Source: Escherichia phage vB_EcoM_SA20RB
DNA: 64,000 nt
Strand: one strand, 5' to 3'
Sequence record: OL960581
Shown here: positions 35,462 to 37,130 of the stretch, in pieces
Layout: every line of letters begins with the position of its first letter
How positions within the stretch are numbered: position 1 is the first letter of the stretch
Position numbers and translations under genes: made by a program
The notes under the pieces: generated by a model
Seen by the model: only the letters and a program-made list of their open reading frames with translations
Told to the model about the DNA's origin: nothing
Database searches by the model: none

Positions 35462-35770
35462 CTTGCGGCAACCTTGTCGGGGTTCCACCTGCTAAGGCAA
35501 GTGTTTGTACGAAACGCCGGGATTCGAACCCGGTTATTAAGCAGTTGACGCTACTCAATATTTTTAAAAGGCCATATCTCGACCATATCCGAACGTTCCG
35601 TCAAAAACGCTACTCGGCTTACGGCAAAGATATTTCCTCGAATCGATAATTCGGTGCGCCGTTTCTGCTGTGATGTAAGAGGGCATCAATAAACGCAAAG
35701 ATTATTAACGCAATTCCTTACTCAGGGAACATCAGTCCGACGACTTACCGGTAGCGACCCGGTTTCTCAT
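35462..35770 (-). ncRNA. Small stable RNA region (T4 rnaC/rnaD-like), boundaries not resolved
   Basis: Non-coding stretch between tRNA-Arg and the terminator; contains a tRNA-like T-arm CCGGGTTCGAATCCCGG (minus strand, near 35517-35533). Confidence 0.4.
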
Positions 35771-35771
35771 T

Positions 35772-35848
35772 TGGTCGAGGCAGAAGGATTCTAACCTTCA
35801 ACCAACGGATTAGAAATCCGTTGCTCTATACAATTGAGCTATGCCCCG
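35772..35848 (-). tRNA. tRNA-Arg (anticodon UCU), CCA encoded
   Basis: Hand fold: acceptor CGGGGCA/UGCCUCG, D stem GCUC/GAGC, anticodon stem ACGGA/UCCGU with loop UUUCUAA, T stem GAAGG/CCUUC. Confidence 0.8.
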
Positions 35849-35851
35849 TAA

Positions 35852-36517
35852 TTAAAATTTCATTTTTCGACCTTTAAACCATCCTTCTGGAATTGGGTCA
35901 GTTTTCTTAATACGTTTAGAAACTTTTTCATCTAATGAATGAATCCACATCATACCAAATTGGGAATTCTTTTCACCCTGTTGATGTTTATTTCTGGCGT
36001 GAGATTCTTTCATTTTATTAATAGTTTCAGGAGTATGGGTCTTACCCAAGAAAGATTTAGTATTTAAAAATTTCTCTCTATACTTAGGATTATCCCAAAG
36101 CTGTTTAAACCTTTCTGAACCCATTTTACGATATTTTTCTTTAAGGTCTGGGTCGTTCTCAAATCTGGTTTTAAAAGCAGCAGCCCCTTTTAAGGAAGCT
36201 TCTTTCTTTTTATCCAAATATTCTTTAGTGTTTAAATGGTCCCAACCACCTTCACCACCTAATTTCAAATTATAAACATCAAGGCGCTTTAAAAACTCTT
36301 CAGTCACAATATTCTTTTCTGACTCAAACATAGAGGTTTTATCGTCAAAGAACTCTAATATTTCTTTAGAGAAATTTTCTATACCATACTTGTCTTGGGC
36401 TCTTTTTAATAATTTACCAGAACCCATATATCCATCATCTAAATTTTCGGTAGAATGAGCGCCTATATAGATTTTATTATTAATTTTATTTGTTATTTTA
36501 TAAGTGTAATGGAACAT
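35852..36517 (-). CDS. segB: GIY-YIG homing endonuclease SegB
   Basis: 221 aa; N-terminal YTYKITNKINNKIYIGAHST GIY-YIG motif; lies inside the tRNA cluster as T4 segB does. Confidence 0.85.
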   Translation of the reverse strand: MFHYTYKITNKINNKIYIGAHSTENLDDGYMGSGKLLKRAQDKYGIENFSKEILEFFDDKTSMFESEKNIVTEEFLKRLDVYNLKLGGEGGWDHLNTKEYLDKKKEASLKGAAAFKTRFENDPDLKEKYRKMGSERFKQLWDNPKYREKFLNTKSFLGKTHTPETINKMKESHARNKHQQGEKNSQFGMMWIHSLDEKVSKRIKKTDPIPEGWFKGRKMKF

Positions 36518-36558
36518 AAATATCTCCTATTTCTAAGAGTATTTATGTTCCCAAAATA

Positions 36559-36630
36559 TGGCCCTGGGTGGAATTGAACCACCATCTGGCGATTATGAGT
36601 CGCTTGCTTGAACCTTCCAGCTACAGGGCC
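36559..36630 (-). tRNA. tRNA with CAU anticodon (Ile by T4 synteny; Met-like anticodon)
   Basis: Hand fold: acceptor GGCCCUG/CAGGGCC, anticodon loop CUCAUAA, T arm GGUGG-UUCAAUU-CCACC. Confidence 0.75.
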
Positions 36631-36636
36631 TTGATA

Positions 36637-36709
36637 TGCTGATTGACGGAATCGAACCGCCGACCTTCTCATTACAAGTGAGTTGCTCTACCTACTGAGC
36701 TAAATCAGC
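36637..36709 (-). tRNA. tRNA-Thr (UGU)
   Basis: Hand fold: acceptor GCUGAUU/AAUCAGC, anticodon stem ACUCA/UGAGA with loop CUUGUAA, T arm GGCGG-UUCGAUU-CCGUC. Confidence 0.8.
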
Positions 36710-36716
36710 GAAATTA

Positions 36717-36803
36717 CGGAGGCGATAGGATTTGAACCTATGAGTCGCCGGAGCGACTGCCGGTTTTCAAGACCGGTGCATTAAACCACTCTGCCACGCC
36801 TCC
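36717..36803 (-). tRNA. tRNA-Ser (UGA), long variable arm
   Basis: Hand fold: acceptor GGAGGCG/CGCCUCC, anticodon loop CUUGAAA, variable arm, T arm UUCAAAU. Confidence 0.8.
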
Positions 36804-36805
36804 AG

Positions 36806-36879
36806 TCTCCGCGGCAGGATTTGAACCTGCGACATTCTGCTCCCAAAGCAGACGCTCTACCAAACTGAGCTACACGGAG
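36806..36879 (-). tRNA. tRNA-Pro (UGG)
   Basis: Hand fold: anticodon stem UCUGC/GCAGA with loop UUUGGGA; T arm GCAGG-UUCAAAU-CCUGC. Confidence 0.8.
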
Positions 36880-36892
36880 TAAATTAAATTTG

Positions 36893-36963
36893 AGCGGATA
36901 ATGAGAATCGAACTCACATCATCAGATTGGAAGTCTGAGGTAATACCATTATACGATATCCGC
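36893..36963 (-). tRNA. tRNA-Gly (UCC)
   Basis: Hand fold: acceptor GCGGAUA/UAUCCGC, anticodon stem UCAGA/UCUGA with loop CUUCCAA. Confidence 0.8.
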
Positions 36964-36969
36964 AAACTT

Positions 36970-37056
36970 TGGTACGAGAAGTGGGACTCGAACCCACAAG
37001 GAAATCATTCCGCAGCATTTTAAGTGCTGTGCCTTTACCAATTTGGCCATTCTCGC
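36970..37056 (-). tRNA. tRNA-Leu (UAA), long variable arm, CCA encoded
   Basis: Hand fold: anticodon stem CAGCA/UGCUG with loop CUUAAAA; T arm GUGGG-UUCGAGU-CCCAC. Confidence 0.8.
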
Positions 37057-37057
37057 G

Positions 37058-37130
37058 CTGGGAATAAAGGACTCGAACCTTTGCATCTAGCAGTCAAAGT
37101 GCTGTGCCTTACCAACTTGGCTAATTCCCA
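37058..37130 (-). tRNA. tRNA-Gln (UUG)
   Basis: Hand fold: acceptor UGGGAAU/AUUCCCA, anticodon loop CUUUGAC, T arm AAAGG-UUCGAGU-CCUUU. Confidence 0.8.

Follow-up and report, generated by a model that had tools for sequence, protein, structure and literature searches.

The annotated transfer RNA (tRNA) operon of bacteriophage T4 (NC_000866.4, 70908-72530) holds, in order and on the same strand, rnaC, rnaD, tRNA-Arg, segB, tRNA-Ile, Thr, Ser, Pro, Gly, Leu, and Gln, and is flanked by e.8 and trna.2. SegB of T4 cuts inside tRNA genes, at a 27-bp site with the T-arm core GGTTCRANTCC; its preferred site lies in tRNA-Asn of T2L, and in T4 x T2L crosses segB was inherited at 99.6% and the T2L tRNA markers were lost (PMC2330249). 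Across phages, segB co-localises with tRNA genes, and T6 escapes the defence system Septu, which like retron-Eco7 targets tRNA-Tyr, through amplification of its tRNA-Tyr gene, an escape of which T4 is incapable (PMC13096335). The two stable RNAs, rnaC (species 1) and rnaD (species 2), are listed as of unknown function (PMC3014915), and were classed as late RNAs detectable by Northern blot in T4 (PMC9697503). The present analysis concerns the corresponding locus of Escherichia phage vB_EcoM_SA20RB, within a 64-kb stretch of its DNA (the window), in whose coordinates all positions are given.

A T4-type tRNA operon in vB_EcoM_SA20RB

The reference features of T4 were placed on the window one by one by BLAST, and the same genes were found in the same order, on the same strand, and between the same flanks, with rnaC, rnaD, and the tRNAs for Ser, Gly, Leu, and Gln matching at 97.7-100%. 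A 2-kb query from the locus matched 969 phage records, nearly all of them T4-like phages of enterobacteria, the closest being Yersinia phage fPS-2 (98.5%). The phage is a Tequatrovirus and a close relative of T4, and the locus is the classical T4 tRNA operon; because of this the finding is already known, and its worth lies in the correct annotation of a textbook locus, with little discovery value. No evidence contradicting the identification was found. The explanation as a whole, a T4-type tRNA operon that tops up codons and carries an Ile2-type CAU tRNA, a homing SegB, and a tRNA-shaped rnaC, is given a probability of about 0.9. Gene identities, coordinates, folds, covariation, codon bias, and the mosaicism of alleles were established here (Table 1).

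Exactly eight tRNA genes were found in the window by ARAGORN, all on the minus strand and each drawn as a normal cloverleaf. Every one was matched by RF00005 of Rfam, with scores of 59.9-72.9 bits (gathering score, 29) and E-values of 2e-10 to 5e-14, so that the calls lie far above chance; for Gln, Pro, Ser, Gly, Leu, and Arg the boundaries from ARAGORN and from Rfam or the T4 annotation were 1-3 nucleotides (nt) apart. A preliminary description, made from the letters of the window, had placed seven tRNAs at 36559-37130 and tRNA-Arg at 35772-35848, the two parted by a GIY-YIG gene, segB. Prediction of tRNA genes, set beforehand as the check, returned all eight with the same anticodons and coordinates, RF00005 concurring, and a 221-amino-acid (aa) open reading frame (ORF) was found between the block of seven and tRNA-Arg. 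As for the gene itself, its product matched PF01541 of Pfam above the cut-off (25.6 against 22.6 bits) and shares 83% of its residues with T4 SegB. All the identifications made in the preliminary description thus held.

Table 1. Features of the tRNA operon and its surroundings, in the leftward order along the minus strand
Feature	Position	Strand	Identity to T4	Details
Second candidate early promoter	38480-38508	-		same type as the next; consensus scan
Candidate T4-type early promoter	38114-38142	-		TTTACA-17-TACTAT with extended TG; upstream of trna.4/trna.3/trna.2 and the operon; consensus scan
trna.2 homologue	37228-37521	-	97.2% (nt)	conserved hypothetical ORF; phrog_2023 (function unknown); directly upstream of the tRNAs
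Leader	37131-37227	-		97 nt; 11-bp hairpin ending about 10 nt before tRNA-Gln; fold z-score -1.2
tRNA-Gln, UUG (DNA TTG)	37057-37130	-	98.6%	no full CCA encoded
tRNA-Leu, UAA (DNA TAA)	36970-37056	-	97.7%	long variable arm; CCA encoded
tRNA-Gly, UCC (DNA TCC)	36892-36963	-	100% over 72 nt	CCA absent
tRNA-Pro, UGG (DNA TGG)	36805-36879	-	84%	CCA absent
tRNA-Ser, UGA (DNA TGA)	36716-36804	-	100%	Rfam/T4 ends 36717-36803; long variable arm; CCA absent
tRNA-Thr, UGU (DNA TGT)	36637-36709	-		CCA absent, encoded in the T4 allele
CAU tRNA (DNA CAT)	36559-36630	-	64% to tRNA-Ile	tRNA-Ile2 type by sequence; CCA absent
segB	35852-36517	-	83% (nt)	free-standing GIY-YIG homing endonuclease gene, 221 aa; ribosome-binding site AGGAG 7 nt before ATG
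tRNA-Arg, UCU (DNA TCT)	35772-35848	-	57%	CCA encoded; begins 3 nt past the segB stop codon
rnaD	35653-35770	-	99.2%, one indel in 119 nt	species 2 stable RNA; begins 1 nt after tRNA-Arg
rnaC	35508-35646	-	98.6% (137/139 nt, 2 mismatches)	species 1 stable RNA
3' trailer and intrinsic terminator	35428-35507	-		stem 35457-35434, then U-run; -36.5 kcal/mol, z-score -4.47
555-bp cassette	34870-35460	-	absent in T4	outside the tRNA operon, shares its terminator

The CAU tRNA

A CAU anticodon is shared by tRNAs of different identity, and the CAU tRNA was aligned with ileX, metT, and metZ of Escherichia coli. Its anticodon stem-loop, GCGACUCAUAAUCGC, is that of ileX and unlike those of metT and metZ. 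The acceptor stem (GGCCCUG/CAGGGCC) provides the pairs C4-G69 and C5-G68, by which TilS reportedly tells Ile2 from Met; the corresponding bases of metT are U4 and A5. Because G1-C72 is paired and the run of three G-C pairs is missing from the anticodon stem, the molecule is not an initiator. In a BLASTN search of 5,426 E. coli genomes, 5,423 matched over most of the query, and the best eight matches were all annotated as tRNA-Ile. The ileX-like stem-loop, the acceptor pairs, and these matches together identify, by sequence, a gene of the tRNA-Ile2 type, predicted to read AUA once lysidine is formed. It would thus function as tRNA-Ile only after the host TilS had turned C34 into lysidine, in keeping with the earlier proposal that the identity of this tRNA depends on modification. 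Compared with ileX itself, with which it is 72% identical overall, the phage gene differs in the sequences of its D-arm and T-arm and lacks CCA, and its lysidine is a prediction. Its body is identical to that of the CAU tRNA of T2.

Codon usage and the choice of tRNAs

All eight anticodons read codons ending in A, namely CAA, UUA, GGA, CCA, UCA, ACA, AUA, and AGA. The 17,630 codons of 79 window ORFs free of mutual overlap (35% G+C) were counted and expressed as shares within each amino-acid family. The shares in the window ORFs and in E. coli are, respectively, 26 and 4% for AGA (Arg), 18 and 7% for AUA (Ile), 40 and 13% for UUA (Leu), 38 and 11% for GGA (Gly), 38 and 19% for CCA (Pro), 29 and 12% for UCA (Ser), 32 and 13% for ACA (Thr), and 69 and 35% for CAA (Gln), so that the eight cognate codons are approximately 2-6 times commoner in the window ORFs. 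These figures fit the classical notion of codon supplementation: the eight codons would be decoded in the host by minor tRNAs while being heavily used by a phage of 35% G+C, and for that reason the phage tRNAs may top up the translation of phage mRNA. This is a simpler account than the replacement of host tRNAs cut by nucleases.

When the anticodon loops were compared with those of the E. coli isoacceptors, five of the eight were identical, and those of Gln, Leu, and Arg differed at positions 32 or 38. Divergence of the loops had been entertained as a sign of nuclease evasion and was dropped, as only three of eight differ. ARAGORN found neither tRNA-Tyr nor tRNA-Lys in the cluster; tRNA-Lys is the target of PrrC/PARIS.

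SegB and the mosaic of alleles around it

The product of segB is, from its sequence, a full-length orthologue of the characterized T4 SegB, likewise of 221 aa and encoded in the same place between tRNA genes; it was assigned to phrog_314 (homing endonuclease) with an E-value of 6e-47 and is 80% identical to SegB of T6. The motifs KIYIG (Y17, G19) and YMGSG are invariant among the three proteins, and the mutation Y17A/G19A inactivates SegB of T6 (PMC13096335). The SegB of fPS-2 is a single residue apart (P79L): residue 79, four positions before the conserved Asn of the GIY-YIG domain, is Leu in the window and Pro in T4, T6, fPS-2, and SHFML-26 (KRPDVYNLK).

Candidate targets of the enzyme were found throughout the locus. 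The core GGTTCRANTCC occurs in six tRNA genes (CAU, Thr, Ser, Pro, Leu, and Gln) as well as in rnaC, and is missing from Arg and Gly. The SITE-seq-derived SegB motif RAWTSGAAC has 10 matches in the 64-kb window, three of them within the 1.7-kb locus (35521, 36649, and 36905, plus-strand coordinates) and falling in the T-arm DNA of rnaC, tRNA-Thr, and tRNA-Gly, respectively; rnaC DNA may therefore be a substrate of SegB as well. No tRNA-Asn occurs among the eight tRNAs of the window, as expected of a phage that carries segB.

Identity to T4 drops near segB, to 57% for tRNA-Arg, 83% for segB, 64% for the CAU tRNA, and 84% for tRNA-Pro, whereas the outer genes remain at 97-100%. The tRNA-Pro allele is 97-99% identical to those of fPS-2 and SHFML-26 and departs from that of T4 through paired substitutions in three of its stems (anticodon, T, and acceptor); such compensatory changes preserve the stems, which argues that the tRNAs are under purifying selection as RNAs. 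The tRNA-Arg allele is unrelated in sequence to that of T4 and T6. Although fPS-2 is the best overall match to the locus, rnaD is only 89% identical to its counterpart there and 99% identical to that of T4; with the tRNAs and segB of the fPS-2 type and rnaD of the T4 type, a recombination breakpoint is placed between tRNA-Arg and rnaD.

The content of the cluster also varies among the described phages. T6 (AP018814.1, 65676-66967) has segB between tRNA genes with tRNA-Arg downstream, as in the window, and its Gln, Leu, and Gly genes match at 97-99%; however, it carries next to segB the tRNA-Tyr gene that is amplified to escape Septu (PMC13096335) and that the window lacks, its annotation is without the Pro and Ser tRNAs that the window has, and its tRNA-Arg is T4-type. 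T2/T2L (NC_054931.1; PMC2330249) shares, besides the CAU tRNA body, Gln, Leu, Gly, and Ser (97-98%) and rnaC (97.8%), but is without segB and has tRNA-Tyr, tRNA-Asn (the preferred cut site of SegB), and two other ORFs; its rnaD is 80% identical to that of the window and has a different distal stem. This patchwork of alleles fits the expected product of repeated gene conversion around a homing endonuclease. SegB would act as a selfish element that cuts the T-arm-encoding DNA of segB-less relatives, and recombination following the cut would copy in segB with its flanking tRNA genes, which would explain why the alleles adjacent to segB are unlike those of T4. The mosaic offers a clean natural example of conversion tracts from a homing endonuclease, an enzyme recently shown to drive the amplification of counter-defence genes.

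The tRNA-Arg allele is also unusual in its loops. Almost all tRNAs carry the tertiary pair G19-C56; the D-loop of this tRNA is AAUUGUAUA and its T-loop UUAGAAU, which gives U19 and A56 instead. The two co-occur in tRNA-Arg of the window phage, fPS-2, and VR20; GG in the D-loop and C56 are retained in five other Arg alleles compared (including those of T4, T6, and LC53), and the group of SHFML-26, T2, VR25, and IME08 has GA in the D-loop with C56. U19 and A56 appear, from these sequences, to be a compensatory exchange of the tertiary pair. That A56, which breaks the core GGTTCRANTCC, shields the segB-adjacent gene from SegB was considered and rejected, since VR20 shares the variant yet has no segB.

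rnaC (species 1 RNA)

The preliminary description had regarded 35462-35770 as a non-coding stretch with a tRNA-like T-arm, likely to hold rnaC and rnaD. BLAST of the T4 features confirmed this for 35508-35770, so that the stable-RNA region comprises rnaC and rnaD; the rest of the stretch (35462-35507) belongs instead to the 3' trailer. The T-arm-like stretch is indeed there, CCGGGTTCGAATCCCGG at 35519-35535, within rnaC. The covariance-model search that had been suggested for the stable RNAs found no matching family in Rfam 15 for rnaC or rnaD.

Situated between rnaD, from which 6 nt part it, and the terminator, rnaC has a minimum free energy of -50.2 kcal/mol and a z-score of -4.55, and no shuffled sequence was as stable. 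Its homologues were found in Tequatrovirus, Gaprivervirus, Karamvirus, Winklervirus, and Tegunavirus, in annotated records inside or beside tRNA arrays. A MAFFT alignment of eight sequences gave a consensus of four arms around a junction. In the terminal arm the 5' and 3' ends pair over 7 bp, with two U-U mismatches in most members that become U-A and C-G in phiR1-RT. The second arm is a bipartite hairpin of about 70 nt in the position of a D-arm, and the third a 10-bp hairpin with a conserved CRUCAA loop. The last resembles a T-arm: a 5-bp stem with the loop UUCGAAU, abutting the 3' strand of the terminal stem as in tRNA. Ten pairs of this alignment were compensatory, against 3.9 +/- 1.3 in shuffled alignments (0/500) and 0-1 in slid controls. 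With the addition of 16 loci from IMG/VR by means of a covariance model, giving 21 distinct sequences, 18 of 49 pairs were compensatory, against 7.2 +/- 1.7 (0/500) and 0-3, respectively.

The same model scores true tRNAs at 18-25 bits (25.2 bits for tRNA-Arg of the window) and aligns rnaC with that tRNA-Arg so that the acceptor stems coincide, as do the T-arms, a hairpin of rnaC corresponds to the anticodon arm, and the 68-nt hairpin takes the place of the D-arm. From this arm-for-arm correspondence rnaC is taken to be tRNA-shaped, and on the strength of the model it is plausibly tRNA-derived; the acceptor/T-arm module probably directs the processing of its ends. It lacks an anticodon loop, an encoded CCA, and a G3-U70 pair, position 3-70 being A-U or G-C, and its terminal stem is followed by UA and not NCCA. 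The layout of end stem and T-arm recalls other RNAs built on this module, such as the tRNA-like domain of transfer-messenger RNA (tmRNA). However, ARAGORN did not call rnaC a tmRNA and no tag reading frame was found; together with the lack of CCA, the U-U mismatches, and a T-loop not conserved in LC53, the resemblance is one of shape and not of membership.

In the E-value mode of Rfam on 35380-35860, tRNA-Arg was accompanied by noise and by a sub-threshold match of tRNA-Sec to the 93 nt at the 3' end of rnaC (16.6 bits, E = 1.6). Its register (CGGAACG/CGUUUCG) was rejected because relatives change G-U to A-C within it, and it is the pairing of the 5' and 3' ends that covaries instead. No homologue of rnaD plus rnaC was found by BLASTN in the 5,426 E. 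coli genomes, and BLASTN seeded with the divergent phiR1-RT rnaC added no further genera. A covariation-supported model such as this could seed an Rfam family for rnaC.

Homologues of rnaC with 81-84% identity occur in Serratia phage LC53 (L005, 2505-2658), Enterobacter phage myPSH1140 (L006, 2496-2650), and Yersinia phage phiR1-RT (L008, 2489-2641), within much larger tRNA arrays. That of LC53 is flanked by tRNA-Phe and tRNA-Trp, and has a diverged T-loop (UGCAUCC) on a stem that covaries. No match to rnaD was found by BLASTN in these three phages.

rnaD and the possible roles of the stable RNAs

All eight rnaD alleles compared have the 5' hairpin ACCGG-GUCGCUA-CCGGU and a basal stem closing at the 3' end, with invariant internal loops. 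The distal hairpin has been swapped wholesale between groups of alleles, but an extended stem is formed there in every one; at least four groups with unrelated distal stems and invariant 5' and 3' cores were distinguished (loci L002, L003, L004, L007, L009, and L010, and the window). The predicted architecture is the same in the eight alleles, with five compensatory pairs; the variable stem is unalignable, and because the single-sequence z-score is weak (-1.43) the structure is provisional.

The remaining interest of the locus lies in the roles of these two RNAs. When a T4-like phage was evolved on a semi-permissive host, all of its lines gained a convergent single-nucleotide polymorphism (SNP) in rnaD (PMC12685909), the only hint of a role in host interaction. 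Together with the covariation of rnaC in at least five Tevenvirinae genera, its constant setting in tRNA arrays, and the stem swaps of rnaD, this SNP gives rise to a speculative and quite improbable reading in which rnaC would be a tRNA-derived and tRNA-shaped decoy or adaptor for host proteins that handle or target tRNA, and rnaD a diversifying, host-specific module, the pair forming a device for host takeover or counter-defence. The partners of rnaC could then be RNase P, the CCA-adding enzyme, modification enzymes, or defence nucleases; a search of the literature on species 1 RNA and RNase P turned up nothing usable. Were it true, this reading would explain RNAs left unexplained since the 1970s.

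Competing explanations

Two of the alternatives concern the naming of genes. The CAU tRNA is labelled tRNA-Met, elongator or initiator, by ARAGORN and in many GenBank records, those of fPS-2, T2, and T6 included, and its DNA anticodon is CAT; such an identity is very improbable for a tRNA with the stem-loop of ileX and not of metT or metZ, with the acceptor pairs of Ile2, without the features of an initiator, with its best E. coli matches among tRNA-Ile, and with a positional homologue in T4 annotated as tRNA-Ile. The DNA at 35462-35770 is likewise covered in many phage records by coding sequences (CDSs) for hypothetical proteins, and it is indeed overlapped by ORFs of 44-81 codons that begin with GTG or TTG. 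That it encodes small proteins is already contradicted and has almost no likelihood left: no frame is open across rnaC in all 21 distinct homologues, the frames over rnaC in T4, T2, T6, fPS-2, and VR25 reach only 34 codons, homologues are separated by single-base indels, the length differences among rnaD alleles are not multiples of three, the substitutions are compensatory in RNA stems, and T4 rnaC was detected as RNA by Northern blot (PMC9697503). Both the tRNA-Met label and the CDSs over rnaC and rnaD are correctable in many records of T4-like phages, as is the annotation of T6 segB as a serine recombinase in AP018814.1.

The other two concern what maintains the cluster. In one, the tRNAs would serve mainly as substitutes for host tRNAs lost to cleavage by anticodon nucleases, to other defences directed at tRNA, or to degradation in infection. 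The tRNA-Tyr of T6 and T5 does neutralize Septu and retron-Eco7, with SegB amplifying the gene under pressure (PMC13096335), E. coli tRNAs are reportedly degraded during T4 infection (PMC9697503), and the loops of Gln, Leu, and Arg deviate from those of the host. Still, T4 failed to escape Septu with the same tRNA set (PMC13096335), tRNA-Tyr and tRNA-Lys are both absent here, five loops are those of the host, and anticodons directed without exception at A-ending codons overused by the phage are not expected of a set driven by defence; such a main role is considered unlikely, and the replacement of nuclease-cut host tRNAs, which the preliminary description had raised, gained no specific support. 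It is somewhat doubtful, too, that the cluster owes its make-up and persistence mainly to the homing of SegB and the amplification that SegB promotes, with the tRNA genes as landing sites and hitch-hikers and not kept for translation. The near-complete inheritance of segB and loss of T2L tRNA markers in crosses (PMC2330249), the company that segB keeps with tRNA genes across phages (PMC13096335), the tRNA content differing among T4, T2, T6, and the window phage, and the breaks between alleles at segB all speak for it; on the other hand, the segB-less phages T2, VR20, VR25, and IME08 retain tRNA genes and rnaC or rnaD here, and the stems of the tRNAs are maintained by compensatory changes. This alternative complements the preferred explanation, codon supplementation by a T4-type operon with a homing SegB, and does not exclude it.

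Some points weigh against that preferred explanation. Codon supplementation is correlative, the E. coli codon shares in the comparison are general background figures, and T4 mutants with tRNA genes deleted are viable on laboratory strains. The change P79L occurs in no compared homologue, and the activity of this SegB allele is putative. The 21-sequence alignment of rnaC was fitted to the structure of the model, which biases its pair counts in favour of that structure; the independent MAFFT alignment of eight sequences agrees with its result. Finally, the scan for sigma-70 promoters gave no more sites in the window than in shuffled sequence, so that the start of the transcription unit is only a candidate, the one support for it being predicted early promoters annotated at equivalent places in fPS-2.

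Transcription and processing

The transcription unit, its processing enzymes, the lysidine of the CAU tRNA, and the activity of this SegB allele are carried over from the T4 literature or from general background. One unit probably runs leftwards from early promoters upstream of trna.4-trna.2, and would comprise in order Gln-Leu, Gly, Pro-Ser, Thr-Ile2, segB, tRNA-Arg, rnaD, and rnaC, ending at the terminator (35457-35434). The hairpin of the leader is possibly a processing site, by analogy with the T4 literature. CCA is encoded in Leu and Arg only; host enzymes must therefore supply it to the other six (Gln, Gly, Pro, Ser, Thr, and the CAU tRNA), besides excising the RNAs from the transcript. 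In T4, dimeric tRNA precursors are matured by host RNases and the CCA-adding enzyme. Spacers in the window are short (Gln/Leu, 1 nt; Pro/Ser, 2 nt; Thr/CAU tRNA, 6 nt; segB stop/Arg, 3 nt; and, downstream, tRNA-Arg/rnaD, 1 nt, and rnaD/rnaC, 6 nt), with Gln-Leu and Pro-Ser forming gene pairs, and would match processing from dimeric precursors of this kind.

Neighbouring features

A cassette of 555 bp, absent in T4, follows rnaC. Its ORF (34910-35383, 157 aa) belongs to phrog_2280 (function unknown), has no Pfam match, and is carried by fPS-2 as well (g131c). The cassette is bounded by a 36-nt direct repeat that includes the terminator of the operon (34870-34905 and 35425-35460, 94% identical), and it looks like either an insertion with duplication of the terminator or a segment lost from T4 by recombination between the repeats. 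The T4 late-promoter motif TATAAATA was uninformative, with 14 sites against 10.9 expected; among them are sites at 37469-37476 and 35420-35427, both on the minus strand, the latter preceding the 157-aa ORF. As a further minor departure of the mosaic from T4, the place of e.7 (336 nt in T4) is taken in the window by an ORF of 58 aa and 177 nt (34158-34334, minus strand) that is T2-like, an ORF of 177 nt being present there in T2 (T2_134).

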